Of a stretch of DNA of 64,000 nt, positions 5,100 through 59,712 are shown piece by piece. Within the stretch, counting starts at the first letter, position 1, and each line of letters opens with the position of its first letter. Both the position numbers and the translations under genes were made by a program. The notes below the pieces were generated by a model. The model was not told the DNA's origin. It did not search any database and worked only from the letters and a program-made list of their open reading frames with translations. This DNA comes from Candidatus Omnitrophota bacterium (GTDB lineage Bacteria > Omnitrophota > Gorgyraeia > Zapsychrales > Zapsychraceae), in the NCBI GenBank assembly GCA_015233115.1, contig JADFYJ010000014.1, positions 11,028 through 75,027 on the forward strand. Direction: 5' to 3'.

Positions 5100-5147
5100 G
5101 GCTGTGGAATGCCGTGGCTGGTTTATTACAAAATATTTTCGTTTTTT

Positions 5148-5378: not shown

Positions 5379-5418
5379 AAAAGCGAATAAAAAAAGGTCC
5401 GTCGTTTGGGTATAAAAT

Positions 5419-10219: not shown

Positions 10220-10220
10220 C

Positions 10221-10262
10221 ACCGCGCCGGAGGACCTACGATCCACCGACGCGGTGTTCCAT
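10221..10262. terminator. GC-rich hairpin downstream of TMTC-like paralog 1
   Basis: caccgcgccgg...ccaccgacgcggtgttcc imperfect inverted repeat sharing a core with 14069-14100 and 58616-58675. Confidence 0.45.
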
Positions 10263-10281
10263 GGGTTTATAGGGATTGATC

Positions 10282-14080: not shown

Positions 14081-14100
14081 GCCTCCGACGCGGTGTTCCT
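14069..14100. terminator. GC-rich hairpin downstream of TMTC-like paralog 3
   Basis: ctccgcgtcggtgg ttagg cctccgacgcggtgttcc. Confidence 0.5.
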
Positions 14101-14163
14101 GGGTTGTTGTTGACTGCCCATACGTTTTGTGCTAGTTTATACGACAATGATTTTGGGTTTTAC

Positions 14164-14266
14164 GGTTGATAGTTGATGGTTTTTGGTTTTTGGAAAAAGC
14201 GAATAATTTCGATAACCAACAACCAGCAACCAGCAACCAACAACCAACAACCCATAACCATCAACA
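14164..14266. repeat. Inverted TGGTTTT/GTTGATG and CAACCA arrays flanking an AAAAAGCGAATAAT box upstream of yggS
   Basis: ggttgatagttgatggtttttggtttttgg ... aaaaagcgaataatttcg ... ataaccaacaaccagcaaccagcaaccaacaaccaacaacccataaccatcaac. Confidence 0.7.
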
Positions 14267-15772: not shown

Positions 15773-15817
15773 AGTATGTGGTATGTAGCATGTAGGATGT
15801 CGTGAAAAAACGATTAG
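15773..15817. repeat. GTATGTN tandem array plus GAAAAAACGATTAGC box downstream of proC (no inverted partner)
   Basis: agtatgtggtatgtagcatgtaggatgtcgtg then aaaaaacgattagc. Confidence 0.7.
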
Positions 15818-15894: not shown

Positions 15895-16755
15895 ATGGCA
15901 AAAATCGGCATTATCGGCGGCAGTGGGTTATATCAGATTGAAGGCATTTCACAAGTCAAAGAAATTTCCGATGTTAACACCCCCTTTGGTAAAGCGTCGG
16001 ATTCTTTGTTCGCGGGAAAATTGGATGGGACGGATGTGGTTTTTTTGTCACGCCACGGCCGCGGGCATCGTATTTCTCCGTCGGAAATAAATTATCGTGC
16101 GAATATTTTTATGATGAAAAAGCTGGGAGTGGACGCGATTATTTCCGTATCCGCTTGCGGTAGTTTACGCGAAGAAATGAAGCCGTTGGATTTTGTGGTG
16201 CCAGACCAATTTGTGGATCGCACGCATCAGGCGCGGAAAATGACTTTTTTTGAGAATGGAATTGTCGCGCATGTTTCTTTGGCAGATCCGGTCAGTCCTG
16301 AATTAACTAAAATACTCATTGAAAGCTGCCGTTCTTTAGGACTAAATGTTCATCCCAAGGGAACGTATCTGAACATGGAAGGCCCGCAATTTTCGACCAA
16401 AGCGGAATCAAATTTATATCGTACCTGGGGCATGGATATTATCGGCATGACCACCATGTCAGAAGCCCGTTTAGCGAGAGAAGCAGAAATTTCTTACGCG
16501 ACTTTAGCCGCGGTGACGGATTATGACTGCTGGCATCCAGGCCATGATGCGGTGACTGTGGATATGATTATTGGTTATTTGATGAAAAACGCGGAAAACG
16601 CGAAGAGAATTTTGAAAACGGCGATTCCAAAGATTGGGCAGTTAAATAGTTTCAGCGCCCAAGACGCGCTAAAATTCGCCCTGATCACAGACAAAAAAGT
16701 CATACCGGAACAAATTAAAAAAGATTTGAATATATTGATTGAAAAATATATTTAG
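15895..16755 (+). CDS. mtnP: 5'-methylthioadenosine/purine nucleoside phosphorylase
   Basis: MAKIGIIGGSGLY...VVFLSRHGRGHRISPSEINYRANI...DAIISVSACGSL; ATG at 15895 with GGGAG RBS. Confidence 0.75.
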   Translation: MAKIGIIGGSGLYQIEGISQVKEISDVNTPFGKASDSLFAGKLDGTDVVFLSRHGRGHRISPSEINYRANIFMMKKLGVDAIISVSACGSLREEMKPLDFVVPDQFVDRTHQARKMTFFENGIVAHVSLADPVSPELTKILIESCRSLGLNVHPKGTYLNMEGPQFSTKAESNLYRTWGMDIIGMTTMSEARLAREAEISYATLAAVTDYDCWHPGHDAVTVDMIIGYLMKNAENAKRILKTAIPKIGQLNSFSAQDALKFALITDKKVIPEQIKKDLNILIEKYI

Positions 16756-16950
16756 TATGTAGTATGTGGTATGTGGTGAAAAAAAGCGATTGATGAACAG
16801 ACGTAATGGATTACAAAATAGATGCATGCCCGCGAAAGCGGGAATTTAAAAGAAAAAAATCTTTTGTTTTTTAACATTTCATTTTTCATATTTAACTTTT
16901 AACTTAATTTTTGTTTTTACTACATACGACATACTACGTACTACATACTA
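16755..16950. repeat. Intergenic island: (GTATGTN)x3 array, GAAAAAAAGCGATTGATGA box, AT-rich spacer, reverse-complement (NACATAC)x4 array
   Basis: Left arm gtatgtagtatgtggtatgtggtg 16755-16778; right arm ctacatacgacatactacgtactacatact 16920-16950. Confidence 0.8.
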
Positions 16951-20640: not shown

Positions 20641-20837
20641 GTATGTCGTATGTAGTATGTGGTATGTCGTGAAAAGCGATTGATGAGAAAATTAAAAAAA
20701 CGCTAAATTATAAAATCGAATAAGAAAATATTGTTATATCGTTTGAGAGGCGCGGTTACGATCTTTTCTAAATATTATTTATTTTTTCCGCGTTTTTTGT
20801 TTTTTTCTACATACTACATACCACATACGACATACCT
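20641..20837. repeat. Intergenic island of same family between lspA and rluD
   Basis: Left gtatgtcgtatgtagtatgtggtatgtcgtg 20641-20671 then gaaaagcgattgatga; right ctacatactacataccacatacgacatacc 20808-20837. Confidence 0.8.
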
Positions 20838-21759: not shown

Positions 21760-21797
21760 AGAGTGACAAAGTAACCGAGTAACAGAGTACGCCGCAT

Positions 21798-21866
21798 GCA
21801 GGAGCTCTCGGCATTACTCGGACATTGCGTCCTTGGTCGTAGGGGCGATCTCCCGATCGCCCGTAA
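21798..21866. repeat. Second copy of the about 45-nt unit + REP palindrome downstream of rluD
   Basis: gcaggagctctcggcattactcggacattgcgtccttggtcgtaggggcgatctcccgatcgcccgtaac. Confidence 0.75.
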
Positions 21867-22155
21867 CAAAAGTATCGTTTTTTGTTTTTTAAAATTGATA
21901 TTTTGAAACAATTTTTAAACGGATGACGGTAAAGCGACAATTTTGAAGCGGGAGATCTGGAGATCTCCCCTACGAAAAATGTGGATATTTTGTCAAAAAA
22001 TGCTCGTTTTTGCGGCGATTCACAAATCGTTTTTAAAACAAAGCGAAAATCCGGATAAATCTTCTTTATTAATTGCAAATTTCAAATATAATAAGTTTAG
22101 TTTAAATGCGTATATTATTTATTTTTGCTATGTTATTTTTTTTAGGGGAGATCGT

Positions 22156-24293: not shown

Positions 24294-24364
24294 AAATCAG
24301 AATGGGGGTATTTGGACATTATTTATTCATTGGAAATCTCTCAAATATATGGTAAAGTTAAAGT

Positions 24365-24574
24365 ATGAATGAATTAATTTTTGAAATCACACAAGAAAAT
24401 GACGGCGGATTTGTGGCTGAATGTTTGACAGAATCAATTTTCACCCAAGCTGATACATGGGAGGAGTTGAGAAAACAGGTTATAGACGCCGTTCACGGAT
24501 ATTTTTTTGACCAACCTAAACCCGAAGTGATCCATTTGCATTTTGTCCGCGATGAGATTCTTGCTACAGCATGA
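24365..24574 (+). CDS. hicB: HicB-like antitoxin (UPF0150)
   Basis: 69 aa; overlaps start of a HicA-like gene; HicB N-domain-like sequence (GGFVAECLTESIFTQADTWEEL). Confidence 0.5.
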   Translation: MNELIFEITQENDGGFVAECLTESIFTQADTWEELRKQVIDAVHGYFFDQPKPEVIHLHFVRDEILATA

Positions 24575-24810
24575 AAATACCACGCAATTTAAATGGCCGC
24601 GCTTTAGCTCAATCACTTTGTCAGCATTGGAAATATCTTCAGGTGCATCAAACCGGCAGTCATATCATTTTGGATACAGAAGAACCGTTTCACCAGCGTA
24701 TAGCAATTCCTGCCCATGAAAGCCTACGGATAGGCACACTTAATCATATTTTAAAGTCTGTAGCGAATCATAAACGGATTAATCGTCAAGAAATCCTTGA
24801 CAAGTTGTAA
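24571..24810 (+). CDS. hicA: HicA/YcfA-like mRNA interferase toxin
   Basis: 79 aa; GSH...IPAHESLRIGTLNHILKSV matches the YcfA/HicA pattern (GSHh...P.H..l..GTL..ILK). Confidence 0.55.
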   Translation: MKIPRNLNGRALAQSLCQHWKYLQVHQTGSHIILDTEEPFHQRIAIPAHESLRIGTLNHILKSVANHKRINRQEILDKL

Positions 24811-24891
24811 TCTTACATATATTTTAAATCTTCCCAGTAAAGAAAGTCAGAGGCTATATTTAAAATAAATTTTACTTAAAATACACAATAG

Positions 24892-25899
<1,008 letters not shown>

Positions 25900-27633: not shown

Positions 27634-27698
27634 GTTGGTTGATGGTTTTTGGTTGTTGGTTTTTGGTTGTCATCCCCGAGTGCTTCAATCGGGGATCC
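27634..27698 (-). promoter_or_regulatory. Conserved leader element (hairpin + CA-rich CAACCA array) immediately upstream of GT2 gene start
   Basis: Transcribed-strand sequence GGATCCCCGATTGAAGCACTCGGGGATGACAACCAAAAACCAACAACCAAAAACCATCAACCAAC then ATG; about 90% identical copy at 29241-29290. Confidence 0.6.
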
Positions 27699-27772
27699 AG
27701 TAATAAAATTTTTCGTTTTTTTAACAGCCAATCGTTTTTTGTTTGACCGATCACCTTTCACCTATCACTTTT

Positions 27773-29240: not shown

Positions 29241-29290
29241 TTGGTTGATGGTTTTTGGTTGTCATCCCCGAGTGCTTAAATAGGGGATCC
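29241..29290 (-). promoter_or_regulatory. Second copy of the hairpin + CA-rich leader element upstream of the PEGA-protein gene
   Basis: ttggttgatggtttttggttgtcatccccgagtgcttaaataggggatcc on plus strand; no SD-like sequence before either ATG. Confidence 0.6.
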
Positions 29291-29430
29291 CAAAATAACA
29301 TAGTTAATTTATCTATCCTTACCTTTTTATTATAAATGAAATCTGAGGCTTGCGCAACTTTAGTATATATTTCTTAATGTTCTGTAGGACCCCGGCATAG
29401 CCTCGGCCGATTTTTGCGTCTAAAAATCGT

Positions 29431-33677: not shown

Positions 33678-33679
33678 AA

Positions 33680-33838
33680 GCGGTATGTCGTATGTGGTAT
33701 GTAGTATGGGGCGAAGAATTTAAAATAATAAAAAAATTGAAAAATGATTTTAAAAACATAATGGGCAAAAGCAAAAAATGTAACAGAAACGCGAAGCGTT
33801 CCAACAATGACATACGACATACTACGCACTACATACTC
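33680..33838. repeat. Intergenic island of same family between mrdA and rodA
   Basis: Left gcggtatgtcgtatgtggtatgtagtatgg 33680-33709; right gacatacgacatactacgcactacatactc 33809-33838. Confidence 0.8.
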
Positions 33839-36829: not shown

Positions 36830-37032
36830 TAATGATAATATTCTTTTAATGATTGTCATTTAATATGGTCTATAGTAAAATCACTTCAAGTTTATTTGTA
36901 AGTTGTTAATACAAAAATACTTGTGCTATGGATCATTGGGGATACTTTACAGGGAAATTCGTGCTGTCTTCCGGCAGGCAGGAATAGCCCCTACGTTTTT
37001 TACTAATCGCTTTCTTTGTTCCGTGATTAAAT

Positions 37033-37480: not shown

Positions 37481-39259
37481 ATGGCCTTCCTAAAGGACCG
37501 GATCAAAGAAATTTTGTTGAGGGATAAACATCTCTCTGCCTCTGATCTTGAAAAAGCGCTGGGTGAACAACAGCGTAAAGGCGGGGAATTAAGCCGGATT
37601 CTTATTGATATGAAATTGATTGATGAAGATACGTTGACGAGCGTATTGAGTCAAAGCCTAGGTATTCCTGTCATTAGTATTACCCGCATTAAAATAGACC
37701 CTCAAGTGATTAAATTTATAGCTCGCGATGTTGCCTTGAAATATCAAATTATGCCCGTTTCTTTAATTGGCCAGACTTTAACTTTGGCTATGGCTGATCC
37801 GTTGAACATTTTTGTTATTGATAATGTCAAGGCGGTAACCGGGTATACGATTAATCCCATTATCGGGCGCAAAGCGGAAATCGCGGGCGCGATTGAACAA
37901 TATTACAAAAAAACGGAAGCGCCTAAAGAAGAAGCTTCAGAAGAATCTCGTGAAGAGTCTTTGGATAAAATTAGTGATTTAATGGGAGATATGGCGAATG
38001 CGGAAGAGCTTGATGAGATTAAGTCGGATGAATTTATCGGGTCTTCGTCGGGTGTGGAAGAGATTAAAGATGAGGCGCCGATTATCCGTCTGACGGATTC
38101 GATCGTCCGGCAATCGGTTCTTATGAAATCCAGCGACGTTTTTATTGAACCTTTAGAAAAAGAAATGCGGGTGAGGCTGAGAGTTGACGGGGTTATCCGG
38201 GAGATTGACCGTCTACCCAAAGCGATTTTGGCGCCATTGGTATCGCGCATTAAAGTTATTTCAAATCTGGATATTTCCGAACACCGGCTCCCTCAAGATG
38301 GACGCTTTAAGATGATCGTGTCCGCGGATAAAGAAGTTGATTTCCGGGTGAATGTTTTACCGACCGCGTTAGGGGAAAAGGTGTGTTTACGCGTGCTGGA
38401 CCAGACGGGTACGGTTTTGGATGTGGAAAAACTAGGGTTTGAGGCCAGTTCTTTACGGCGGTTAAAAGAATGCGCGCTTAAACCGCATGGCATGATTTTG
38501 ACTTGCGGCCCTACGGGTAGTGGAAAAACCACCACGTTGTATTCGATTCTCAAACACGTCGACTCTCCGGAAAAAAATATTGTGACGGTGGAAGATCCGG
38601 TCGAATACCAGTTTAAGGGAGCGTGCCAGGTCAATGTCAAGCCCGCCATGGGACTGACGTTCGCGACGAGCTTGCGCTCAATTCTTCGGCAGGATCCGGA
38701 CATAATTATGATCGGAGAGATCCGTGACGCGGAAACTTTGGATATTGCCGTGAAAGCCGCTTTGACGGGACATTTGGTATTGAGTTCGCTGCATACCACT
38801 ACCGCTTCGGGTTCTGTGGTGCGGATGGTGAATATGGGGGTAGAACCGTTTTTAATTTGTTCTTCGGTTTTAGCGATTATTGCTCAGCGGCTTTTAAGAA
38901 AAGTCTGCCAGAATTGTAAAGAGCCCTATACTCCTCCGGAGGCGGTGATTGAAAAAGTGGGACTGCGGCAGGTGACCCAAGACAAAGAAATTATTTTATA
39001 CCGTGGAAAAGGCTGTGAGCAATGTTTTAAGAGCGGATATAAGGGCCGGGTGGGGATTACGGAGATTTTGGTTATGACGCCGGCGCTTAAAGAAGTGATT
39101 ATGGCCATGGCTGGTGAACCCAAAGTCAAAGAGGTTTCCCGCCGTGAAGGGATGATCACCATGCGGGAGGACGCGTTATTGAAAGCTTTGAAAGGGTTAA
39201 CGACGTTAGAAGAAGTTCTACGGATCACTGCGCCGGATGAGATATTGGAGAAAAAGTAA
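37481..39259 (+). CDS. pilB: Type IV pilus assembly ATPase PilB/GspE family
   Basis: Walker A GPTGSGKTTT; N-terminal MshEN/GspE-N-like repeats (RIKEILLRDKHLSASDLEKALGEQ); C-terminal CxxC...CxxC tetracysteine. Confidence 0.85.
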   Translation: MAFLKDRIKEILLRDKHLSASDLEKALGEQQRKGGELSRILIDMKLIDEDTLTSVLSQSLGIPVISITRIKIDPQVIKFIARDVALKYQIMPVSLIGQTLTLAMADPLNIFVIDNVKAVTGYTINPIIGRKAEIAGAIEQYYKKTEAPKEEASEESREESLDKISDLMGDMANAEELDEIKSDEFIGSSSGVEEIKDEAPIIRLTDSIVRQSVLMKSSDVFIEPLEKEMRVRLRVDGVIREIDRLPKAILAPLVSRIKVISNLDISEHRLPQDGRFKMIVSADKEVDFRVNVLPTALGEKVCLRVLDQTGTVLDVEKLGFEASSLRRLKECALKPHGMILTCGPTGSGKTTTLYSILKHVDSPEKNIVTVEDPVEYQFKGACQVNVKPAMGLTFATSLRSILRQDPDIIMIGEIRDAETLDIAVKAALTGHLVLSSLHTTTASGSVVRMVNMGVEPFLICSSVLAIIAQRLLRKVCQNCKEPYTPPEAVIEKVGLRQVTQDKEIILYRGKGCEQCFKSGYKGRVGITEILVMTPALKEVIMAMAGEPKVKEVSRREGMITMREDALLKALKGLTTLEEVLRITAPDEILEKK

Positions 39260-39465
39260 CCGAGTAACCGAGTAACAGAGTAACAAAGAGATAGCACAAA
39301 AGGCTAAACGCGATTGCTGAGAAAAGTTTTGTATTTTAAAAGCATCTATTTATTAAACATTTTTTATCAATTTTTGAGTATTAGTTTTTGTTTTTTATGC
39401 TTTTCGTTGTTTTACTCGGTTACTTTGTTACTCGGTTACTTTGTTACTCGGTTACTTTGTTACTA
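39256..39465. repeat. Intergenic island between the two pilB genes: (GTAACNRA) 8-mer array, AT-rich spacer, inverted (KGTTACTY)x7 array
   Basis: Left gtaaccgagtaaccgagtaacagagtaacaaagag 39256-39290; right gttgttttactcggttactttgttactcggttactttgttactcggttactttgttact 39405-39465. Confidence 0.8.
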
Positions 39466-39481
39466 TTAAGAATATAATCCT

Positions 39482-41200
39482 ATGGCTAAGACGGTAAAAG
39501 ATACAATTTTGGATGAATTGGTGGGTTCGGGAAAGTTTCCGCCTAAAGTGTTGGAAGAGGCTAAACAGCTTCACCTGCGCGAAAAGATTCCTTTTGAGAA
39601 AGCTTTGATTAAAAAAGGCTTGATTACAGAGGAAGATTGGCTGTTAATGCTGGTTTCTGAACTGGGGATACCATTCGTAAATTTGGCCCGGTATAAATTA
39701 ACGCCCTACTTGCAGGAAATCATTCCAGAAAATATTGCCCGTCAGTATAAAATTGTTCCTTTGGTGGATACGCAATTTTCTGTGACCATCGCGACAGCTG
39801 ACCCCTTAAATGTTTACGCGTTGGATGATCTTAAAAACATTACAGGGAAACGGATTGATGTGGTGTTGAATACAGAGAGTGAAATTATCAAGAAAATTGA
39901 TAATTTTTACGGTGATCCAACGAAACGGGATGTCCCGGAATTTAAGGCTCAGGATGCGGCTTTTGAAGAATTCGAGCTGGTATCTCAAAAAGAAGAAGAT
40001 GACGCGAATTCAGGAGGCGAGGCTGTTGATGAAAGCGAAAAAGCACCAATCATCCGTATGGTTAATCTGATATTGAAAGAAGCCTTGCGTCAACGGGCGT
40101 CGGATATTCATATTGAACCTATGGAAGAGTGCGTCCGGGTGAGGTATCGGATTGATGGGGTTTTGCGGGATGTGCTGACCATTCCTAAAAAAAATCAAAA
40201 CGCGATGGCAACGCGTATCAAGATTATGTCGCGGTTGGATATTACCGTCAATCAAGCGCCGCAGGATGGACGTTTTAAGCTAACGTTAAAAGAAAAGAGC
40301 GTGGATTTTCGCGTTTCCATTCTGCCTGCCACATTTGGCCCCAAAGTGGTTATGCGGATTTTGGATCGTTCCAAATTAGCGGTTGGGGTGGACGGTCTGG
40401 GATTAACTCCTAAAGCTTTGCAGTTGATCAAGGACGGAATTAAAAAACCATTTGGGATGATGTTAGTCACTGGCCCGACAGGAAGCGGAAAATCTACGAC
40501 TTTGTATTCTATTGTGAATGAATTAAATACAGTGGAAAGAAATATCATTACTGTAGAAGATCCGGTTGAATATTTGTTAGAAGGTTTAACTCAGATTCAG
40601 GCCATGCCGGAAATCGGGCTCACCTTCGCGGAAGGCTTGCGTTCCATTTTACGTCAGAGTCCAGACGTGGTCATGGTGGGAGAAATCCGCGATGGGGAGA
40701 CTGCGGATATCGCGATCAAAGCGTCTCTGACTGGGCAATTGGTATTGTCAACGCTGCATACCAACGACGCGGCTGGGGCATTGACGCGTCTGGTGGATAT
40801 GGGAGTGGAGCCGTTTTTAGTGGCTTCCAGTTTGGTGCTGGTCACAGCTCAGCGCTTGTGCCGCAGGATTTGCCCTCACTGCAAAGCAGAAATAAAAATT
40901 GATCCGGATGTGTTAAAACGTTTGGGGGATATTGTTCCGAAGGACTCCATTTTTTATCAAGGCAAAGGTTGTGAGCAATGCAAAAACACCGGCTATACCG
41001 GCCGTTTATGTATTACAGAAGTTTTAGACATTGATGATGAGATACGAATGATGCTGTTGCAAGGAAAGACGTCTGACGAGATTAAAAAATATTCCCGCGA
41101 AAAAAAAGGTATGGCTACGTTGTATCAAGATGCTATGGCTAAATGTTTGCAAGGAATTACCTCTCTAGAAGAGGTCTTTAGGATTACGTCTAGTGACTAA
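39482..41200 (+). CDS. Second PilB/GspE-family secretion ATPase paralog
   Basis: Walker A GPTGSGKSTT; colinear with preceding gene; C-terminal CPHC...CEQC. Confidence 0.85.
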   Translation: MAKTVKDTILDELVGSGKFPPKVLEEAKQLHLREKIPFEKALIKKGLITEEDWLLMLVSELGIPFVNLARYKLTPYLQEIIPENIARQYKIVPLVDTQFSVTIATADPLNVYALDDLKNITGKRIDVVLNTESEIIKKIDNFYGDPTKRDVPEFKAQDAAFEEFELVSQKEEDDANSGGEAVDESEKAPIIRMVNLILKEALRQRASDIHIEPMEECVRVRYRIDGVLRDVLTIPKKNQNAMATRIKIMSRLDITVNQAPQDGRFKLTLKEKSVDFRVSILPATFGPKVVMRILDRSKLAVGVDGLGLTPKALQLIKDGIKKPFGMMLVTGPTGSGKSTTLYSIVNELNTVERNIITVEDPVEYLLEGLTQIQAMPEIGLTFAEGLRSILRQSPDVVMVGEIRDGETADIAIKASLTGQLVLSTLHTNDAAGALTRLVDMGVEPFLVASSLVLVTAQRLCRRICPHCKAEIKIDPDVLKRLGDIVPKDSIFYQGKGCEQCKNTGYTGRLCITEVLDIDDEIRMMLLQGKTSDEIKKYSREKKGMATLYQDAMAKCLQGITSLEEVFRITSSD

Positions 41201-41203
41201 AAA

Positions 41204-41520
41204 AGAGTAACAAAGTAACCGAGTAACAGAGTAACCGAGTAAAAAAGTAACAACGGAAAGAATATAAAAAAATAAAAAACGAATGTGAAAAGAAAAGCAT
41301 TGGAAAAAAATATAAATTGTAAATTGCAAAGATTCGCTTTTTCTATTCAATATTGATGCTAAAATATCAAAGAATAGGATTTTGTTAAAATATAGAAGAA
41401 CATAAGGTTCGTGGCACAAGTAAGAAATTTTTATTATAAATAATATAATGCTTGCTTTGTGTTTTTAATTTTTTATTGTTTTATCATTGTTACTTTGTTA
41501 CTCGGTTACTCTGTTACTCT
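41204..41520. repeat. Intergenic island between pilB paralog and pilC, same GAGTAAC family
   Basis: Left agagtaacaaagtaaccgagtaacagagtaaccgagtaaaaaagtaacaacgg 41204-41252; right cattgttactttgttactcggttactctgttactct 41485-41520. Confidence 0.8.
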
Positions 41521-41536
41521 AAAGTGAGGTTAAATT

Positions 41537-42739
41537 ATGCCGACTTTTAAATATGTAGCCAAAGATGCTGAATCCAAAAGTTTGACCGGTAAAATTGCGG
41601 CAGATGATAAGAATGCGGTGGTTGAAGAGTTACGCAAACGGAAACTGACTATTATTTCTGTAACGGAAATGAAGGGCGAAAAAGTCAAAACCGGCTCCCG
41701 TAGAAAAGTTAAAGCGGAAGAAATTGTGCTTTTTGCCCGTCAGTTAGCCACGATGGTGGAGGCAGGTATGCCAATCTTGCAGGGCTTAAACGCTTTGGCG
41801 GACCAGACCACCAATGAAGGGTTTAAAAAAGTTTTGACTGAAGTTGAAACAGATATCAAGCATGGTTCGAGTTTATCCTCTGCATTTGCCAAACATCCGC
41901 ATGTGTTTAATAATTTATTTATTAATCTCGTAAAAGTCGGGGAAACCGGCGGTATTTTGAGTACAGTTTTAGATCGGGTTTCCACGTATATGGAAAAAAC
42001 TTTGAGTTTACAGCGTAAGGTGAAATCCGCTTTAGTTTATCCGAGCGTAGTCGTATCTATGGCGATCATTATCACTGTGGTGCTTTTGATTAAAGTCGTT
42101 CCCACTTTTACGGGAATTTATTCTTCTTTCGGGAAAGAATTGCCGGCGATGACGCAAGTACTGGTTAACGCGAGTAATTTTCTGCAGTCTTATATAATTT
42201 TTATTATTATTGCCATTGTTGGTTTAGGGTTTGGGCTTGCGCGCTGGCATAAAACTGAAAAAGGCGCTTTGGTGATTGATGGTGCTGTGTTACGTTTGCC
42301 GGTTTTTGGAGAGCTTTTACGTAAAGTCGCGGTGAGTCGGTTTACCCGTACGCTGGCTACGTTGGTTCAGAGCGGGGTGCCTATTCTCGAATCATTGAAT
42401 ATTGTTGAAAAAACTATTGGAAATAAAGTTTTGGAAAATGTTATCAAAGATGTTCAAGTGAGTGTCAGGCAAGGGGAAAGCTTATCTGTGCCGTTGGAAA
42501 AGAGCACAGTATTTCCTCCCATGGTCACCCGCATGATTTCCATTGGAGAAAAATCCGGGCAGATGGAAAAAATGCTTTTAAAAGTTTCTGAATTTTATGA
42601 TGATCAAGTGGACACGGCTGTTGATGGCTTGACGAGTATGATTGAACCTCTTATCATTGGGGTCATGGGAGTGGTGATCGGTTTTATCGTTATCGCGCTT
42701 TTTATGCCGATCTTGTCAATGTCGCAGTTGGTGAGCTAG
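41537..42739 (+). CDS. pilC: Type IV pilus inner-membrane platform protein PilC/GspF family
   Basis: 400 aa, two GspF-type repeats with 3 TM helices; follows PilB genes. Confidence 0.85.
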   Translation: MPTFKYVAKDAESKSLTGKIAADDKNAVVEELRKRKLTIISVTEMKGEKVKTGSRRKVKAEEIVLFARQLATMVEAGMPILQGLNALADQTTNEGFKKVLTEVETDIKHGSSLSSAFAKHPHVFNNLFINLVKVGETGGILSTVLDRVSTYMEKTLSLQRKVKSALVYPSVVVSMAIIITVVLLIKVVPTFTGIYSSFGKELPAMTQVLVNASNFLQSYIIFIIIAIVGLGFGLARWHKTEKGALVIDGAVLRLPVFGELLRKVAVSRFTRTLATLVQSGVPILESLNIVEKTIGNKVLENVIKDVQVSVRQGESLSVPLEKSTVFPPMVTRMISIGEKSGQMEKMLLKVSEFYDDQVDTAVDGLTSMIEPLIIGVMGVVIGFIVIALFMPILSMSQLVS

Positions 42740-42845
42740 TCAATAGGTTATAGGTTATAGGAAAAATTTTTGTCATTCCCGCGCAAGCGGGAATCCAGAT
42801 TTTCGTTTTTCCTGTCGCCTATCGTATTATCAAAGGAGAATAGGC

Positions 42846-48656: not shown

Positions 48657-49082
48657 ATGATAAGAAATATTATCTTAGTCGTGGATGATGAAGAGCATAT
48701 GGTGAGCTTGTTGAAACAAGCTTTGGCGGATGATCATACGGAAGTGATTGGTGCTTCTGATGGACAAGAAGCTTTGGATTTGGTATCGAACCGGCATGTG
48801 GATTTGATCATTGCGGATAACAATATGCCTAAAATTCTGGGAGAAAATCTTTTTTTAGAAATTAAAAAAATGGATCCATTTGTTCAGCTGATCATGATTA
48901 CGGGATATCCGTCAGTCACAGTGATTGTTAAGATGCTGGAAGCGGGAGTATCAGATTTTTTAATCAAGCCTTTTGATCTAAATCAGATTCAATTGGTGGT
49001 TAAAGAAACATTAGGGAGGATCGAACGCTGGCGCAATTTGCGCAAAGAGTGGATGGCGTATAAGAAAAGAGGAATCGAGTAA
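48657..49082 (+). CDS. Single-domain response regulator (CheY-like receiver)
   Basis: ILVVDDEEHMVSLL...DLIIADNNMP...FLIKPF; ATG at 48657 two nt after the cheB stop. Confidence 0.8.
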   Translation: MIRNIILVVDDEEHMVSLLKQALADDHTEVIGASDGQEALDLVSNRHVDLIIADNNMPKILGENLFLEIKKMDPFVQLIMITGYPSVTVIVKMLEAGVSDFLIKPFDLNQIQLVVKETLGRIERWRNLRKEWMAYKKRGIE

Positions 49083-49140
49083 CCGAGTGACAGAGCAAAA
49101 ATGTTGATGGATAAAAGAAAAATTATATTAAGGGAGAATT

Positions 49141-50097
49141 ATGGGCAGCGAAAATAATGAATTGATAGGAGAGTTTATCGCGGAGAGTGAGGAATACTTG
49201 GCCGTTTTAAACCAGAAATTGCTCAAGGCTGAAGATGCCATTAAATCCGGCGTGGATATGTCTGCGGAAGAATTAAACGCTATGTTCCGTTCTGTGCATA
49301 CGATTAAAGGGACAGCCTCCTTTTTTGATTTGCAAAAGATCGTTCATTTAACGCATGATATGGAAGCCGTTTTATCCCGGATAAAAAAATTTGAAATGAA
49401 ATTGACGGCGCCTATCATAGATGTATTATTCGGTGCTTTTGATACATTACAAAAATTGGTCACGAATTTAAAAGAACAGGGCTCATTGGATTCAGTGGAT
49501 ATTAAAAAAAATATTCAGGAAATCGCGTTGATCTTAGATGAAAAGCCTGTTGAACCAAGTATTAAAGGGACTCAGCCGAGTTTGGGTTCGAATCAACCGG
49601 TTCTCCCTGTTGTTGCGGCAGGGACAGTTATCCCGGCGGCCGTTTCTATTCCGCCCGCCGCGGTTCAGGTCCCCAAAGGAGAACAGGATTTTGGGGTCAT
49701 GGAGATCAATGATAGATTTATGGAAGCTTTTGTTTCGGATATCGAAGATAATGTTGAGAATTTTAATAATGATCTGATCAAGCTGGAACAAACTGGGAAT
49801 CTCGATTTGGTCGGGAATTTGTTTCGTTATGCTCATACTGTAAAAGGTTCGTCCGGCGTCGTTAATTGTCAGCCTATGACAGAGGTGTCCCATAAGATGG
49901 AAAGCATTTTGTCAGTTTTTCGCGAGCAGAAAAAAACTATTGATACAGATACGGTCACTTTGCTTTTAGATGGAATTGATACGGTTAAATTTATTTTAAA
50001 TGCAATTAAAAAACAGACTCATCTGGTTTTAGATTTGCAGGCCATTACCGATAAATTAGATCAGCAATACAAGAAATTGATCAACCCTGGAATTTGA
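49141..50097 (+). CDS. cheA: CheA N-terminal fragment: two tandem HPt (P1) domains
   Basis: Two HPt signatures, FRSVHTIKGTASFF and FRYAHTVKGSSGVV, separated by a Pro/Val-rich linker; no kinase domain. Confidence 0.75.
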   Translation: MGSENNELIGEFIAESEEYLAVLNQKLLKAEDAIKSGVDMSAEELNAMFRSVHTIKGTASFFDLQKIVHLTHDMEAVLSRIKKFEMKLTAPIIDVLFGAFDTLQKLVTNLKEQGSLDSVDIKKNIQEIALILDEKPVEPSIKGTQPSLGSNQPVLPVVAAGTVIPAAVSIPPAAVQVPKGEQDFGVMEINDRFMEAFVSDIEDNVENFNNDLIKLEQTGNLDLVGNLFRYAHTVKGSSGVVNCQPMTEVSHKMESILSVFREQKKTIDTDTVTLLLDGIDTVKFILNAIKKQTHLVLDLQAITDKLDQQYKKLINPGI

Positions 50098-50121
50098 GTG
50101 TGCTGGAAGGAGTCACTGAAT

Positions 50122-53024: not shown

Positions 53025-53075
53025 AAAAGACACAAGTCACATGTCACATGTCACATGTTACAAGTTACCTGTGAC
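53025..53075. repeat. GTCACAT heptamer tandem array between cheY and hybrid kinase
   Basis: gtcacatgtcacatgtcacatgttacaagttacctgtgacac. Confidence 0.7.
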
Positions 53076-54231
53076 ACAACAAAGGTTACATATTTTGCCT
53101 GCCATATTGATCGTTGATGATTCAGAAGTGGAATGCGCCCTTTTAAAAGGGATATTGCATAAATCGTTTTCTGCATACGAAGTGTTAATTGCCCATCATG
53201 GCCGGGAAGGCCTGGAGCTGTTGGCGCAGAGAGACGTTGATATTGTCTTGTCTGATATGATGATGCCGGTTATGAATGGCTGGGAGTTTTGTGAAATTAT
53301 AAAAAAAGATCCCCGAACCAAAGATGTTCCAGTCCTTTTATTTTCTTCTTTAGAGCAGGTCCAGGAAAAAGCCAAAGGTTTTGAAGCGGGCGCGGCCGAT
53401 TATATTGTCAAACCAATCGAATCCGGTGAAGTCATCGCACGCATTAAAGTCCATTTAGGGCTTAAACATTATCAGGATCAATTGAAAGACCTTAACCGAG
53501 AGTTAAAAGAAGCTCAAGACGCTCTGGTGCAAAGTGAAAAAATGTCAGCGGTCGGAACTTTGGCGGCAGGGATTTCTCATGAATTTAATAATGTTTTGGC
53601 GATGATGAAAGGTTATATCCAGTTATCCCAGCAAAAGAATAAACTAGACGACGTGAAACCTGCCCTTGCGGTCATGCTGGACTTGGTCGAACGGGGGCAA
53701 TTTTTAGTAAGATCTATGCTGGATTTTTCCAAAGGCGGGATGTCGGAAAACAAGCAAAAAATAGTTTTAGCACAGATAATCGATAAAGTCAGGGTGCTTA
53801 TGGAACCCATGTTTAAGGCGCAGGGTGTTCAGGTTGAGCTTCAGGGTAAATCCTCGTGTGAGTTGCAAGGTTATCCTAATCAATTGTCTCAAGCGATTAT
53901 TAATTTTGCCAAGAATGGGATTGAAGCCTGTGAAGGCCGTACGGAGAAAAAAATTACCATTGAATTCGGTAAATCTTTGTTCGATAGGGTGGAGTGCGCG
54001 TATATCCGGGTCATTGATACCGGCGCCGGAATCCCTGAATCAATTCGGAAATGTATTTTTGATCCTTTTGTGACCACCAAAGGTGTTATCGCCGGAGGCA
54101 ATCGTTCCACGGCTGGCACGGGGTTGGGTTTAACTGTTTCGTATAATATTATCAAAAAACACCACGGTGAAGTCAAAATCGAAAAGACCGGCTCTGCAGG
54201 AACGACGATGCTAGTTACTATACCTCTATAA
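53041..54231 (+). CDS. Hybrid receiver-histidine kinase (REC-HisKA-HATPase)
   Basis: N-terminal REC (ILIVDDSEVE...VLSDMMMPVMNG), H-box ISHEFNNVLAMM, G-boxes (IDTGAGI; GTGLGLTVS). Confidence 0.8.
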   Translation: MSHVTCYKLPVTQQRLHILPAILIVDDSEVECALLKGILHKSFSAYEVLIAHHGREGLELLAQRDVDIVLSDMMMPVMNGWEFCEIIKKDPRTKDVPVLLFSSLEQVQEKAKGFEAGAADYIVKPIESGEVIARIKVHLGLKHYQDQLKDLNRELKEAQDALVQSEKMSAVGTLAAGISHEFNNVLAMMKGYIQLSQQKNKLDDVKPALAVMLDLVERGQFLVRSMLDFSKGGMSENKQKIVLAQIIDKVRVLMEPMFKAQGVQVELQGKSSCELQGYPNQLSQAIINFAKNGIEACEGRTEKKITIEFGKSLFDRVECAYIRVIDTGAGIPESIRKCIFDPFVTTKGVIAGGNRSTAGTGLGLTVSYNIIKKHHGEVKIEKTGSAGTTMLVTIPL

Positions 54232-58615: not shown

Positions 58616-58675
58616 TTGGACCACCGCGTCGGTGGACCACTGGTCCACCGACGCGGTGGCCCAACGGTCTAAAGG
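58616..58675. terminator. GC-rich palindromic terminator between convergent kinase and prenyl-synthase genes
   Basis: CCGTTGGACCACCGCGTCGGTGGACCA / TGGTCCACCGACGCGGTGGCCCAACGG near-perfect 27-bp inverted repeat. Confidence 0.6.
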
Positions 58676-59712
58676 CCTTGGATCAGGGCTTTAAATTCAA
58701 GGTTGATACACGAGCGGTTAAGAATGGAAGCTGCTTTTTTCTCAAGCCGTAAAATATCAGCTTCAGCTTGAAGCAGGCTTCCCGTATCGATAATTATTTT
58801 TCGGATAATTTTAAGGTCTTTTTGGTTGACCCGGTTTTTCGCAAAAATGCTTTTGATGGTTTTCCGGTTTTTGCTATCCGCGTTTTGAAAAGCGTAAAAA
58901 ATAAGAATAGTGCGTTTGGATTCCTGCAGGTCCGTTAAGCAAGATTTTCCTGAGTTATTATGGTTTGAAAACATGCCTATGATGTCATCGCGAATTTGAA
59001 ACGCCTGCCCAATAGCGCGTCCGTATTTTTCCAGGACGCTGACTTCTTGAGACGAGGCCCCGGCTAATATCGCCCCTAAACACAGCGGCGCCGCGAATGT
59101 GTACCAGGCGGTTTTGAGATCATAGATTTTATGAATATCTTCCAGAGCAATTTTTTCAAAGGGTTGAGTCGTCAGAAGCAGTTCTTCAAATTGTCCGCAA
59201 CCCGTCAAAGCGGCGATACGTAGCAGATAATGCAGGGCGGTTTCTTTTGATTGAGGATTGGCTTTAATTGAAAAAAATAAATCGAGGGCGATCGAGAAGA
59301 GGACGTCACCGGCAATAATCCCCATGTCTTCACCCGTGAATTTGTTTTTCTGGTTTTTTCCGATCTTTTGGTTGAACAAGACATGCAAGGAAGACTGCCA
59401 CCGCCGTTTGTTTGAGTGGTCAATAATATCGTCGTGGATCAGCATAAAATTGTGGATGAGTTCTAATCCGGCAGCACTGGTATAGATGGATTGGGGTAAA
59501 ATGCCCAGCTGAGGAGTTATTCTTTTGTTGGCATGCGCGGCGTAGCTTAGGATAAAAAGGAGCGGCCGCAAACGTTTGCCTTTTCTTAAAGAATAATCAG
59601 TTATCGTCGAAAAAAGAAAAGGAGAAAAACTTTTAAAAGGATAAGATTTTTGAAAGATCTGCGGCAGTGACGCAATCGTTTTGTCTAATTTAAGTTTTAT
59701 TTGGTTAATCAT
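58669..59712 (-). CDS. trans-Polyprenyl diphosphate synthase (GGPP/longer-chain, CrtE/IspB-like)
   Basis: Two DDxxD motifs: LIHDDIIDHSNKRR and FQIRDDIIG. Confidence 0.85.
   Translation of the reverse strand: MINQIKLKLDKTIASLPQIFQKSYPFKSFSPFLFSTITDYSLRKGKRLRPLLFILSYAAHANKRITPQLGILPQSIYTSAAGLELIHNFMLIHDDIIDHSNKRRWQSSLHVLFNQKIGKNQKNKFTGEDMGIIAGDVLFSIALDLFFSIKANPQSKETALHYLLRIAALTGCGQFEELLLTTQPFEKIALEDIHKIYDLKTAWYTFAAPLCLGAILAGASSQEVSVLEKYGRAIGQAFQIRDDIIGMFSNHNNSGKSCLTDLQESKRTILIFYAFQNADSKNRKTIKSIFAKNRVNQKDLKIIRKIIIDTGSLLQAEADILRLEKKAASILNRSCINLEFKALIQGL

Follow-up and report, generated by a model that had tools for sequence, protein, structure and literature searches.

The two long gaps in the pilus operon of a Candidatus Omnitrophota genome are members of a dispersed foldback-repeat family that is lineage-specific and was inserted into junctions that are tight in related genomes, and they are not a pilus-specific control device. 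Judging from the sequences compared, their insertion into the operon was recent, and the family is one of the long-unit simple-sequence repeats, a class that comprises the cyanobacterial STRR repeats and the inverted heptamer pairs of Xanthomonas. The analysis covered a 64-kb stretch of a metagenome-assembled genome (MAG), referred to below as the window.

Inverted arrays at both junctions of the pilus operon

A sequence-only reading of the window had described inverted 8-mer arrays, GAGTAAC and GTTACTC, at both internal junctions of the operon, in noncoding gaps of 222 and 336 nt. Coordinates bear out the gap lengths (pilB stop at 39257-39259 to pilB2 start at 39482; pilB2 stop at 41198-41200 to pilC start at 41537), and Pfam supports the gene identities (Table 1); the pilB2 protein matches one from a Candidatus Omnitrophica MAG at 100% identity. 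The arrays themselves were confirmed by a scan for period 8 with at most one mismatch to AGTAAC and by the complementarity of the arms; the scan places the gap 2 arrays at 41206-41251 and 41489-41518. Where 4 to 6 units had been reported at the gap starts and 4 to 7 reverse-complement units at the gap ends, we find 4 and 6 at the former and 7 and 4 at the latter, such that unit counts differ between the arms of each gap (4 versus 7 and 6 versus 4). The 16-bp unit noted in the right array of gap 1 was recovered by TRF as a 16-nt unit repeated 3.3 times with a 100% match (39412-39464).

The gap 1 arms are 92% complementary over 36 nt; those of gap 2 are 94% complementary over 32 nt or, in a shifted register, 86% over 58 nt. 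The spacers consist of 70 to 75% A+T (75% for gap 2 as a whole). In gap 1, a T-rich tract, TTTTTGTTTTTT..TTTTCGTTG, precedes the right arm, while the gap 2 loop is A-rich on its left and T-rich on its right, so that the stem can reach past the arrays. The gap 1 loop contains no plausible small ORF, the gap 2 loop only low-complexity ones, and neither loop has an Rfam match. In the window, GAGTAAC occurs 15 times versus 3.2 ± 1.6 expected (0 of 100 shuffles reach 15), and AGTAAC 29 times versus 14.7 expected.

Table 1. Genes, promoter, and repeat features of the window, by position
Feature	Position	Strand	Remarks
Compact GGTTNNT/AACCAAC-family element	14163..14265	+	TPR/YggS-like junction, upstream of YggS-like gene
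Solo GTATGTN left array, then box GTGAAAAAACGATT	15775..15802	+	3' of ProC gene
GTATGTN/NACATAC heptamer element	16754..16949	+	PNP/IleRS junction; arms 16754-16777, 16919-16949
GTATGTN-family element	20641..20836	+	LspA/RluD junction; arms 20641-20668, 20807-20836
Solo left-type GAGTAAC array	21762..21783	+	3 units, directly 3' of RluD-like gene
Junction of two minus-strand genes	27634..27772	-	GTGATAG-type units after stop; AACCAAN x5 abutting next ATG (gene orientation)
GTATGTN-family element	33683..33837	+	PBP2/RodA junction; same two-armed architecture
Likely operon promoter, TTGTCA-17-TAAAAT	36853..36881	+	10/12 consensus match; 5' of MshEN-domain gene, pilB, pilB2, pilC
pilB-type ATPase	37481..39259	+	592 aa; Pfam T2SSE 4e-134, MshEN
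Gap 1 left arm	39255..39284	+	4 units of NNAGTAAC; first unit includes pilB stop codon
Gap 1 AT-rich loop	39285..39410	+	box AAACGCGATTGCTGAG (39306-39321) close to left arm
Gap 1 right arm	39411..39464	-	7 reverse-complement units (GTTACTNN); ends 17 nt 5' of pilB2 ATG
pilB2, second pilB-type ATPase	39482..41200	+	572 aa; Pfam T2SSE 2.5e-135, MshEN
Gap 2 left arm	41204..41251	+	6 units of NNAGTAAC; begins 3 nt past pilB2 stop
Gap 2 AT-rich loop	41252..41488	+	
Gap 2 right arm	41489..41520	-	4 reverse-complement units; ends 16 nt before pilC ATG, just 5' of GAGG ribosome-binding site
pilC platform protein	41537..42739	+	400 aa; Pfam T2SSF 2.7e-66
Post-pilC element	42743..42831	+	ATAGGTT x2.7, GC-rich hairpin + T-run (terminator-like), then partial CCTATCG arm
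Solo left-type GAGTAAC array	49078..49091	+	2 units, overlapping stop of receiver-domain gene

The same architecture elsewhere in the window

The arrays had been linked to individual regulation or processing of the pilus genes. They are not tied to those genes: the same architecture is found at the TPR/YggS-like, PNP/IleRS, LspA/RluD, and PBP2/RodA junctions. These other junctions, which build the same layout from other 7- to 9-mers, had been overlooked in the earlier reading. Across the window, about 15 of about 24 intergenic gaps carry tandem arrays of 7- to 9-nt units from several motif families, 0 to 7 nt past the stop codon. The five best two-armed elements have a left arm beginning 0 to 7 nt past the stop and a right arm ending 15 to 20 nt before the next start. 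Element sizes range from 106 to 336 nt and interiors are not conserved, the variable spacers being unalignable (mean column identity, 58%).

Several arrays stand alone (at 15775, 21762, 29237, 31422, and 49078), among them both isolated GAGTAAC arrays that the sequence-only reading had pointed out; a hairpin therefore cannot be the role of these. At the junction of two minus-strand genes, the two arrays lack mutual complementarity, and the antisense fold is the stabler.

Near-identical arms suggest that the copies share ancestry: the right arms at PNP/IleRS (16920-16949) and PBP2/RodA (33808-33837) differ by 1 mismatch in 30 nt, and the solo array after the RluD-like gene (21760-21795) matches the gap 2 left arm (41204-41239) at 32 of 36 positions. 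A shared box, GTGAAAA(AAA)GCGATTGATGA, located 3' of two left arms, points the same way. An AAAARCGAT box occurs 10 times versus 4.6 expected, mostly adjoining arrays. Candidate routes of spread are transposition, gene conversion, or slippage combined with inverted duplication. The element borders show no visible target-site duplications, and the 64-kb window, to which the gene search was confined, holds neither a transposase or recombinase gene nor an RNase III gene.

Related genomes lack the insertions

Five related Omnitrophota genomes share the gene order pilB/pilB2/pilC, and none of them has arrays at these junctions, where their gaps measure 3 to 81 and 25 to 162 nt (n = 5). In the relative with 87% PilB2 identity, the gaps are 3 and 77 nt; in those at 63 to 65% identity, they are 3 to 81 and 25 to 162 nt. 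Adjacent-unit pairs of three array families number 15, 14, and 11 in the window versus 0 across all the relatives' loci, and arrays of period 6 to 9 reach a density of 0.33 per kb versus 0 to 0.09 per kb. We therefore regard the elements as lineage-specific insertions. The earlier reading had itself named absence from the same junctions in close relatives, with no effect on expression, as evidence against its view; as far as presence and absence go, none of the five genomes has arrays at these two junctions. The pilus operon thus works without the elements in these relatives, and any function that they have is dispensable.

At the PBP2/RodA site, one relative (L001) carries a degenerate left array at the same position. 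Among 107 loci from unrelated phyla, tandem arrays of period 7 (138) and period 8 (213) dominate, versus 28 of period 6 and 22 of period 9, and none of their motifs is shared with the window.

Predicted folding of the elements

Structure prediction for both gaps gave RNA hairpins far stabler than shuffled sequences: -66.6 kcal/mol for gap 1 (z, -6.1) and -91.5 kcal/mol for gap 2 (z, -9.8), with no shuffle equally stable in either case. The LspA/RluD element yielded a z of -6.2. In all nine elements tested, plus-strand RNA is stabler than its complement, and plus is the gene sense strand in eight of them; long-range pairs number 253 in the sense fold (20 G-U, 1 A-C) and 236 in the antisense fold (9 G-U, 4 A-C). 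This asymmetry is modest and partly due to G+T-rich left arms, which mutational bias could also yield.

Arm pairing extends across the family. Left and right arrays come from the same complementary motif family at 7 of 8 two-armed junctions, and the cognate duplex energies sum to -246 kcal/mol versus a permutation mean of -120, with 103 of 40,320 permutations as good. The post-pilC junction, included in the 7, matches only weakly, and the 33683/33810 arms are about 75% complementary, no more.

Interpretation and alternatives

Our preferred account, held with moderate confidence, is one of lineage-specific foldback insertions that are probably co-transcribed, would loop out of the mRNA in vivo, and may be targets of RNase III. 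Each element runs from an array after the stop codon through a variable spacer that is first A-rich and then T-rich and, in the five best two-armed copies, on to a reverse-complement array before the next start. Promoterless, it would form part of an operon transcript that starts at the conserved promoter 5' of the MshEN gene, and pairing of its arrays in RNA would form a 30- to 57-bp stem that loops out the insert. Upstream stop and downstream ribosome-binding site would then lie about 15 to 27 nt apart, as in insert-free relatives, the stem keeping them close. The insertion would then leave expression of the operon and translational coupling intact. So long and nearly perfect a double-stranded stem would be the kind of substrate cut by RNase III; hence, the element may also split the polycistronic mRNA and change how stable or how well translated the two neighboring cistrons are relative to each other, an effect that could be tuned as slippage adds or removes units. 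The earlier suggestion that the pilus genes are individually regulated or processed through the arrays thus survives in part: the very stable predicted intercistronic hairpins make processing of the operon mRNA plausible at both gaps, while individual regulation finds no support.

It is possible, if rather doubtful in our view, that the elements are a neutral or selfish by-product without regulatory role, slippage-prone simple-sequence repeats that fold on themselves and are tolerated as harmless inserts at junctions. Their origin and spread would be due to slippage during replication, to inverted duplication and gene conversion, or to a mobilizing enzyme. The element-free relatives, the diversity of sequence-unrelated motif families, the variable spacers, the unequal unit counts, and the solo and decayed copies all agree with this, and the dominance of periods 7 and 8 with unshared motifs in other phyla fits a mutational process; an excess of heptamers has also been explained by the footprint of the polymerase, in a proposal cited in PMC4692102. 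Such a by-product is harder to reconcile with the strict placement of the five best elements relative to stop and start, the retained complementarity of the pilus-gap arms (92 to 94%), the better folding of the sense strand in 8 of 9 elements, and the persistence, in two species, of a left array at the 3' end of PBP2. However, most of these observations could also follow, without any function, from purifying selection on the sites at which an insert can be tolerated.

An element acting at the DNA level, whose units bind a nucleoid-associated protein, recombinase, or transposase or whose cruciforms affect replication, supercoiling, or recombination, appears improbable. The single-stranded DNA fold does lie well beyond shuffles (-37.4 kcal/mol; z, -6.3), inverted site arrays at both ends recall transposon ends, and the AAAARCGAT box near arrays could be a protein site. 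Yet a period of 8 or 7 bp places successive sites on different helix faces, and since at least five unrelated unit sequences share one layout in one genome, a single sequence-specific protein cannot explain them; the lack of visible target-site duplications at the borders and of a transposase or recombinase gene in the 64 kb also speaks against it.

We consider it very improbable that the arrays are pilus-specific operators or insulators next to separate promoters, with pilB, pilB2, and pilC individually regulated. Such a scheme would suit the length and A+T content of the spacers, and gap 2 has several promoter-like matches on its antisense strand. Sense promoters suspected inside the spacers did not materialize: no sigma-70-like match of at least 9/12 lies on the sense strand of gap 1, gap 2, or the other array elements scanned, whereas the regions upstream of the pilus operon and of mreB score 10/12 and 11/12, respectively. 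Neither gap has a sigma-54 match, the sole TGGCAC (near 41405) being without the TTGC half. At the operon promoter, six Omnitrophota genomes share the -35 TTGT and the TATAGTAAAAT block. Together, this conserved promoter, 5' of the MshEN gene, and the promoterless spacers argue against individual transcription; the presence of the same elements beside housekeeping genes and their absence from relatives speak against the scheme as well. Finally, although assemblers can be misled by repeats and the source is a short-read metagenome bin, an assembly artifact is scarcely credible given that each array spans at most 54 nt, below read length, gene order over both gaps is the same in five independent assemblies, reading frames on either side are intact, and the pattern recurs, precisely placed, at about 15 junctions.

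Relation to known repeat families

The MITE-like and mosaic intergenic repeats of bacteria, such as Neisseria Correia elements and the enterobacterial ERIC and REP/BIME sequences, are short noncoding inverted repeats at intergenic sites and operon junctions, co-transcribed as RNase-cleavable hairpins that alter the stability of flanking mRNA segments. Compared by description only, they resemble the Omnitrophota elements as inverted-repeat inserts with predicted co-transcribed hairpins, possible RNase cleavage, presence in some relatives but not in others, and modules shared in mosaic fashion. On the same descriptive basis, the Omnitrophota elements differ in having arms of tandem 7- to 9-nt subrepeats rather than unique terminal repeats, which recalls eukaryotic Foldback elements, as well as no visible target-site duplication, unconserved interiors, and their range of sizes.

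Our working model, a transcribed tandem repeat in a long RNA hairpin just 5' of a gene, has a precedent in Haemophilus influenzae hmw1A. There, one side of a long 5'-UTR hairpin is a transcribed heptamer repeat; RNase III processes the hairpin, which alters expression and repeat-number dynamics, and repeat number tunes expression (PMC12721329). That mechanism is experimental at hmw1A and would apply to the Omnitrophota elements by analogy. The hmw1A hairpin belongs to one phase-variable virulence locus and pairs its repeat with a G-rich region; in the dispersed Omnitrophota family both arms are arrays.

The Xanthomonas GGGAATC and Nostoc GGGGA(C/T)T heptamer repeats are built from G-tract units for which G-quadruplex formation has been proposed (Rehm et al. 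2015, PMC4692102). Each Xanthomonas genome has 70 to 75 convergent inverted heptamer pairs capable of forming stem-loops, most of the repeats are transcribed, and 83% of sites are common to two species (PMC4692102). The Omnitrophota arrays are likewise mostly intergenic, favor co-oriented genes, lie within 50 bp of a stop (sense strand) or 50 bp upstream of an ORF (antisense), prefer about four units, and vary in length between relatives. In contrast, the GAGTAAC, GTATGTN, and AACCAAC units lack G-tracts, which means that quadruplex formation cannot be what unites these repeats, and the pilus-junction copies are missing from the closest relative.

For the cyanobacterial STRR hairpins in the hupS-hupL gap, an effect on transcript stability or translational coupling has been proposed (PMC2670836). 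Like these Nostoc/Anabaena repeats, the Omnitrophota elements consist of tandem units of the 7-nt class in intergenic positions, including intercistronic operon gaps, are hairpin-capable, and are dispersed in many copies. They depart from STRR in several respects: the pilus gaps are built on an octamer, several unrelated unit families occur side by side, the elements reside in an Omnitrophota MAG, AT-rich loops of about 125 to 240 nt lie between the arms, and the interval from stop to ribosome-binding site is filled almost exactly. At a cyanobacterial locus from Chamaesiphon (L087), we found inverted heptamer arrays lying adjacent to each other.

Octamer arrays at both internal junctions of the pilus operon

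A period-8 chain scan for AGTAAC, allowing at most one mismatch, placed two arrays in each of the gaps separating pilB, pilB2 (a second pilB-type ATPase gene) and pilC: a left arm in + orientation after the stop codon and a right arm in reverse-complement orientation before the next start, with a loop between them (see table). Every array was confirmed by TRF, which gave a period of 8 with 3.8 to 6.6 copies in all four arms and a perfect 16-nt unit repeated 3.3 times (100% match) at 39412-39464. The heptamer GAGTAAC occurs 15 times in the window compared with 3.2 expected, a count reached by no shuffle. The sequence-only reading had described two unusually long gaps bounded by four such arms, a near-perfect 16-bp unit at 39405-39465 and isolated GAGTAAC arrays elsewhere; its description of arrays and gaps was borne out in every detail, and the 16-nt unit and both isolated arrays were recovered. 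The finding itself is real, and its statistical basis is solid.

The arms of each gap form a true inverted repeat, 36 nt long and 92% complementary in gap 1 (pilB-pilB2) and 32 nt long and 94% complementary in gap 2 (pilB2-pilC), where a shifted register of 58 nt at 86% complementarity extends into the A-rich and T-rich flanks. Structure prediction, which the same reading had called for, returned stable RNA folds for both gaps, with energies of -66.6 kcal/mol (z -6.1) for gap 1 and -91.5 kcal/mol (z -9.8) for gap 2. The outer stems of the predicted hairpins comprise 51 and 57 long-range pairs. Folded as DNA, gap 1 gave a z of -6.3.

Positions of pilus genes, gaps and repeat arrays in the window
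Feature	Position	Orientation	Description
pilB	37481-39259	+	Pfam T2SSE and MshEN
Gap 1, left arm	39255-39284	+	4 units
Gap 1	39260-39481		222 nt
Gap 1, right arm	39411-39464	reverse complement	7 units
pilB2	39482-41200	+	second pilB-type ATPase
Gap 2	41201-41536		336 nt
Gap 2, left arm	41206-41251	+	6 units
Gap 2, right arm	41489-41518	reverse complement	4 units
pilC	41537-42739	+	Pfam T2SSF
Solo GAGTAAC array	21762-21783	+	3 units
Solo GAGTAAC array	49078-49091	+	2 units
TPR/YggS-like junction	14163-14265		GGTTNNT and AACCAAC
PNP/IleRS junction	16754-16777; 16919-16949		GTATGTN x3; NACATAC arm
LspA/RluD junction	20641-20668; 20807-20836		two arms
PBP2/RodA junction	33683-33710; 33810-33837		two arms
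After pilC	42743-42831		ATAGGTT x2.7, GC hairpin with T-run, then partial CCTATCG arm
Other solo arrays	15775; 31422; 47532; 55155
R-type AACCAAN arrays	27634; 29237		before two minus-strand genes

A family of two-armed elements across the window

TRF on the whole window, combined with a list of intergenic gaps, revealed the same two-armed layout at non-pilus junctions too, the identities of the flanking genes being taken from Pfam. The 64-kb window holds 6 GAGTAAC, 7 GTATGTN-type and 4 AACCAAN/GGTTNNT arrays, and about 15 of its approximately 24 intergenic gaps of at least 30 nt have an array. This layout is a general one, of which the pilus gaps provide two cases, and we call it genome-wide from these 64 kb.

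In the five best two-armed elements, left arms begin 0 to 7 nt past the stop codon, and the distance from the end of the right arm to the next ATG is 18, 20, 15, 17 and 16 nt, so that the interval from stop codon to ribosome-binding site is almost exactly filled by the element. At 7 of 8 junctions, both arrays come from one complementary family, although the pair after pilC, one of these seven, is only weakly complementary. In an 8x8 matrix of duplex energies, the cognate combinations sum to -246 kcal/mol against a mean of -120, with 103 of 40320 permutations equal or better. Arrays flanking genes match in about 2 of 6 cases as opposed to 7 of 8 for those flanking gaps, and mRNA circularization by 5'-3' UTR pairing was rejected on this basis. 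An all-frame stop-codon array, with a TAA every 8 nt, was discarded as well, AACCAAC and most GTATGTN units being devoid of stops.

The elements range from 106 to 336 nt in length, and their AT-rich interiors are unalignable (58% mean column identity), the common parts being the ends and a box of about 20 nt. Positions 21760-21795 and 41204-41239 agree at 32 of 36 nucleotides, the right arms at 16920-16949 and 33808-33837, both irregular, show one difference in 30 positions, and a box GTGAAAA(AAA)GCGATTGATGA follows two left arms. In addition, AAAARCGAT (10 occurrences, 4.6 expected) and the TTTTCGTTTTT-like tracts that precede right arms (21 occurrences, 9.7 expected) are in excess. From these similarities we judge the element copies to be related by descent and not by independent slippage.

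A self-complementary array at the two-gene boundary 53031-53076, built of GTCACAT/ACATGT units and then TGTGAC, represents a palindromic version of the arrays at junctions.

Recent insertion into tight operon junctions

PilB2 is 100% identical to a protein from a Candidatus Omnitrophica MAG; its next relative stands at 87%, and many then follow at 60 to 69%. We compared the contigs of five related Omnitrophota genomes, all of which keep the gene order mreB-mreC-(mreD)-PBP2-RodA-MshEN-pilB-pilB2-pilC. Here, the pilB-pilB2 gap measures 3 nt in L001 (the closest relative, at 87% identity), 20 nt in L002, 81 nt in L116, 3 nt in L118 and 35 nt in L119, and the gap after pilB2 measures 77, 25, 142, 94 and 162 nt, respectively. 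No array was found in any of these gaps. Adjacent-unit pairs of the three main array families number 15, 14 and 11 in the window and zero in each relative's locus, and period 6-9 arrays reach a density of 0.33 per kb in the window compared with 0 to 0.09 per kb in the relatives.

At the pilB-pilB2 site, L001 reads AAAAAATAA-TTT-ATG and the window AAAAAGTAA-[element]-ATG, which places the insert exactly between stop and start. Comparing the filled sites of the window with the empty sites of L001, we saw no clear target-site duplication; at most, AAA or CTAAA forms a direct repeat at gap 2, which is weak given the AT-rich sequence. The comparison shows the pilus-junction elements to be lineage-specific insertions. 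Recent insertion has placed these arrays in operon junctions that are otherwise tight. Some arrays are older: at the 3' end of the PBP2 gene, L001 (5381-5420; window 33678-33720) has a degenerate heptamer array (GTATAGA GTGGATG GTATAGA GTATATA) in the corresponding position, and GAAGAAT.AAAAT comes after it there as it does in the window. Therefore, some arrays predate the species split, whereas the pilus-junction copies do not. The window represents an unusually clean natural experiment, in which junctions that are tight in relatives (3 to 81 nt for pilB-pilB2) are filled by foldback inserts of 222 to 336 nt in one lineage, at housekeeping and pilus genes alike.

Relation to known repeat classes

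Short tandem repeats of 7 to 8 nt near gene boundaries (STRR) have been known since 1990 and are still unexplained. The window arrays resemble them in their head-to-tail units of 6 to 9 nt (TRF period 8, four to seven units per pilus arm), in a non-coding site near an ORF boundary (seen in the five best two-armed elements), in their many dispersed copies within the 64-kb window, and in convergent inverted pairs able to form stem-loops. Their closest class is that of long-unit simple-sequence repeats.

Rehm et al. described GGGAATC heptamers in Xanthomonas and GGGGA(C/T)T heptamers in Nostoc (PMC4692102). These heptamers, 89 to 93% intergenic in two Xanthomonas genomes, prefer co-oriented ORFs as flanks and about four units, lie at most 50 bp from a stop on the sense strand or, on the antisense strand, at most 50 bp upstream of an ORF, and form 70 to 75 convergent inverted pairs per Xanthomonas genome, their function being reported as unknown (PMC4692102). 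The window arrays obey the same placement rules, but their units cannot form quadruplexes: taking at least four G-tracts of at least three G per array as the measure, GAGTAAC, GTATGTN, AACCAAC and ATAGGTT all fall short, having no GGG. This suggests a unifying feature other than quadruplexes, and points to hairpin formation or the mutational process itself as what these repeats have in common.

Like MITEs, the elements have terminal inverted repeats (arms of 32 to 36 nt, 92 to 94% complementary) and are present or absent at orthologous sites, as seen for both pilus junctions against the five relatives. Uniform size and a conserved interior were not found, and no transposase domain was detected among the approximately 40 window ORFs scanned. 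A classical MITE was rejected for want of a clear target-site duplication and a conserved interior. The arms of tandem sub-repeats also recall eukaryotic Foldback elements.

Searches of the literature by sequence string, and for Omnitrophota together with tandem repeats, found no paper on such arrays in Omnitrophota. The elements very probably constitute an STRR-like foldback repeat family, recently inserted and not specific to pilus genes, and they extend the known class of inverted tandem arrays of the STRR type, itself of unsettled function, to a new phylum and new units.

AGTAAC arrays in unrelated genomes

A scan for four AGTAAC units in one genome per species, with this as the one pattern used, returned more than 111 loci. 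Bacteroidota dominate among the matches listed, which also include Planctomycetota, Calditrichota, Cloacimonadota, Patescibacteria, Gammaproteobacteria, Actinomycetota, Myxococcota and a cyanobacterium. Among these listed matches, 105 of 114 arrays fall outside called ORFs, a complementary partner occurs within 500 nt for 16 of 168 arrays, most being solo microsatellites, and the hosts are not related to the source organism, with protein identities of 36% or less. Likewise among the matches listed, polarity is inconsistent (36 arrays nearer one side, 30 the other), and the other arrays present have different motifs, with periods of 6 (28 arrays), 7 (138), 8 (213) and 9 (22), so that 7 and 8 predominate. 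With loci that are mostly solo, without consistent polarity, in unrelated hosts and beside differing motifs, one AGTAAC-specific factor acting across phyla was rejected.

A window-like layout is found in some of the listed loci, an illustrative example being L033 (with L027, L028 and L038 similar), from an uncultured bacterium (contig CAZIXI010000053.1). At 4456-4580 of this locus, between two receiver-domain genes, the stop codon lies inside the first of 11 AGTAAC units, which are followed by a short reverse-complement arm, an AAGGAGG ribosome-binding site and ATG. A metagenome scan for a shared 22-mer returned one unrelated solo array, past a stop.

Long intergenic mosaics of varied 7-/8-nt arrays occupy positions 1175-2438 and 4297-5268 of the locus from Allomuricauda sp. 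CP2A (L050), and mosaics of many such arrays are also present in L063, L105 and L087, with up to 16 arrays in 8 kb. These mosaic loci come from cultured Flavobacteriia, Lentimicrobiaceae, Calditrichota and a cyanobacterium.

Possible fate of the elements in the operon transcript

As a tentative model, in which we place somewhat less than even confidence, we propose a loop-out hairpin with possible RNase III processing. The arms would pair within the operon mRNA and loop out the insert, leaving 15 to 27 nt from stop to next start via the stem base, comparable to the 3 to 35 nt of most relatives, and translational coupling would be preserved. pilB2 is without a Shine-Dalgarno sequence in both the window and L001. 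A stem of 30 to 57 bp would also make a natural RNase III substrate, such that segmental processing or differential stability may follow, and slippage in unit number (4 versus 7, 6 versus 4) could tune the effect. In the 5' UTR of Haemophilus influenzae hmw1A, a transcribed heptamer repeat supplies one arm of a long hairpin that RNase III cleaves, and cleavage affects expression and repeat dynamics (PMC12721329); the predicted outer stems of the pilus gaps are similarly long hairpins with a repeat as arm. For the STRR hairpins of cyanobacterial hupS-hupL, an effect on transcript stability or translational coupling has been suggested (PMC2670836). If cut by RNase III or preserving coupling, such hairpins would provide a general route to tolerate, and then exploit, junk inside operons.

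Alternatively, the arrays might be a neutral or selfish by-product. This would fit with their absence from relatives, with the variety of their motifs, with the occurrence of copies that are solo or decayed, and with period-7 and period-8 arrays being generally in excess in unrelated genomes; a self-folding insert would be harmless and hence tolerated. We consider this account rather doubtful. The loop-out model could also be carried much further, to a new class of bacterial foldback elements with arms of tandem 7-9-nt sub-repeats, which would actively colonize operon stop-to-start junctions, possibly by a dedicated or host-encoded mechanism and without target duplication, as tunable operon punctuation, the hairpin keeping coupling while RNase III cutting and unit slippage set the cistron expression ratio. 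On that view, cyanobacterial STRR, Xanthomonas heptamer pairs and the abundant 7/8-nt arrays found in loci of Bacteroidota, Calditrichota and Planctomycetota would all be instances of one phenomenon. This we regard as an unlikely, speculative proposal; if true, STRR, a puzzle for 35 years, would have a general function.

That the arrays act at the DNA level, as protein sites or cruciforms, is very unlikely, five unrelated unit sequences and a 7-8-bp period being hard to reconcile with it. Since an inverted repeat is identical on both strands, the polarity with the G-rich arm first cannot separate RNA from DNA level. Plus-strand RNA is predicted to be more stable than its complement in 9 of 9 elements tested, by 2 to 15 kcal/mol, and the plus strand is the gene sense strand in eight of them, the exception being the junction at 27634, where the arrays are non-complementary. 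Sense folds contain 253 long-range pairs (20 G-U, 1 A-C), and antisense folds 236 (9 G-U, 4 A-C). The predicted strand difference leans toward sense RNA, but is confounded by the G+T-rich left arms.

No sense-strand sigma-70-like match of at least 9/12 was found in any array element, and an internal promoter search of the elements found no sigma-54 site. By comparison, such matches are present in both regions where promoters are expected: TTGACA-17-TATTAT upstream of mreB, and TTGTCA-17-TAAAAT at 36853-36881 upstream of the MshEN gene, the latter conserved as TTGT...TATAGTAAAAT in six genomes. Scanning for a GC-rich stem directly before a U-run, we found no terminator-like site within either pilus gap, whose right arms are followed by AUUAAGAAUAU and CUAAAGUGAGG, and intrinsic terminators at the arms were dismissed. 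Rfam likewise ruled out a known RNA family, the whole window being without a match at gathering threshold and 39200-41600 matching solely a chance-level miRNA (E 0.83). Small proteins encoded in the spacers were rejected, these having low-complexity TTG/GTG ORFs only and no credible small ORF. On the simplest reading, we infer a single transcript that runs from 36853 to include pilC and both elements.

The sequence-only reading had proposed that the pilus genes are individually regulated or processed through these arrays. Separate regulation is contradicted by the lack of a sense sigma-70-like or sigma-54 site inside either spacer; internal promoters were rejected on these grounds, and a promoter for each pilus gene is most improbable. 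The pilus framing itself is wrong: the TPR/YggS-like, PNP/IleRS, LspA/RluD and PBP2/RodA junctions have the same layout, excluding sites for a pilus-specific regulator. For annotation, a long gap within an Omnitrophota operon is no sure sign of separate transcription units. An assembly artifact has next to no probability, as synteny contradicts it and the arrays are shorter than the read length.

Further repeats and genes in the window

REP-like palindromes GGGGCGATCTCCCGATCGCCC at 89-118, 5254-5283, 5353-5382, 21841-21870 and 21948-21977 make up a second repeat family, which is rich in GC. The family is also present at 5155-5252 and 21795-21840, often beside a 47-49-nt unit (..CGGACATTGCGTCCTTGGTCG..), and its copy at 21819-21865 matches 5232-5278 with 98% identity. 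In the stretch 21760-21870, the GC-rich repeat directly follows a GAGTAAC array; different repeat families thus form mosaics. A third dispersed palindromic repeat, CACCGCGTCGGTGGACC...CCACCGACGCGGTG, is found at 10220-10278, 14060-14105 and 58621-58680, in short gaps after genes, and looks like hairpins at gene 3' ends. Beside the AACCAAN arrays, a conserved hairpin module, GTCATCCCCGAGTGCTT.AAT.GGGGATCC, occupies 27666-27700 and 29258-29292, the regions upstream of the two minus-strand genes being 84% identical over 79 nt. A similar GTCATTCCCGCGCAAGCGGGAATCC, then a T-run, is present after pilC (42770-42797).

Among the genes, cheA is apparently split by a single in-frame TGA at 50095-50097, with the Hpt part at 49141-50097 and the dimerization/ATPase/CheW part starting at 50098 in the same frame; the relative L002 has one CheA of 851 aa. 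Read-through, recoding, a real split of the gene or an error in sequencing could each account for the TGA. Positions 8192-14080 encode three tandem paralogues of 675, 668 and 602 aa with C-terminal TPR repeats; with 70 to 79% DNA identity over blocks 2057 and 1990 nt apart, this trio is, by sequence comparison, a recent triplication. Finally, the 607-nt "gap" at 24294-24900 contains two short ORFs of about 70 and 80 aa, which look like a putative pair of small genes of the toxin-antitoxin type.
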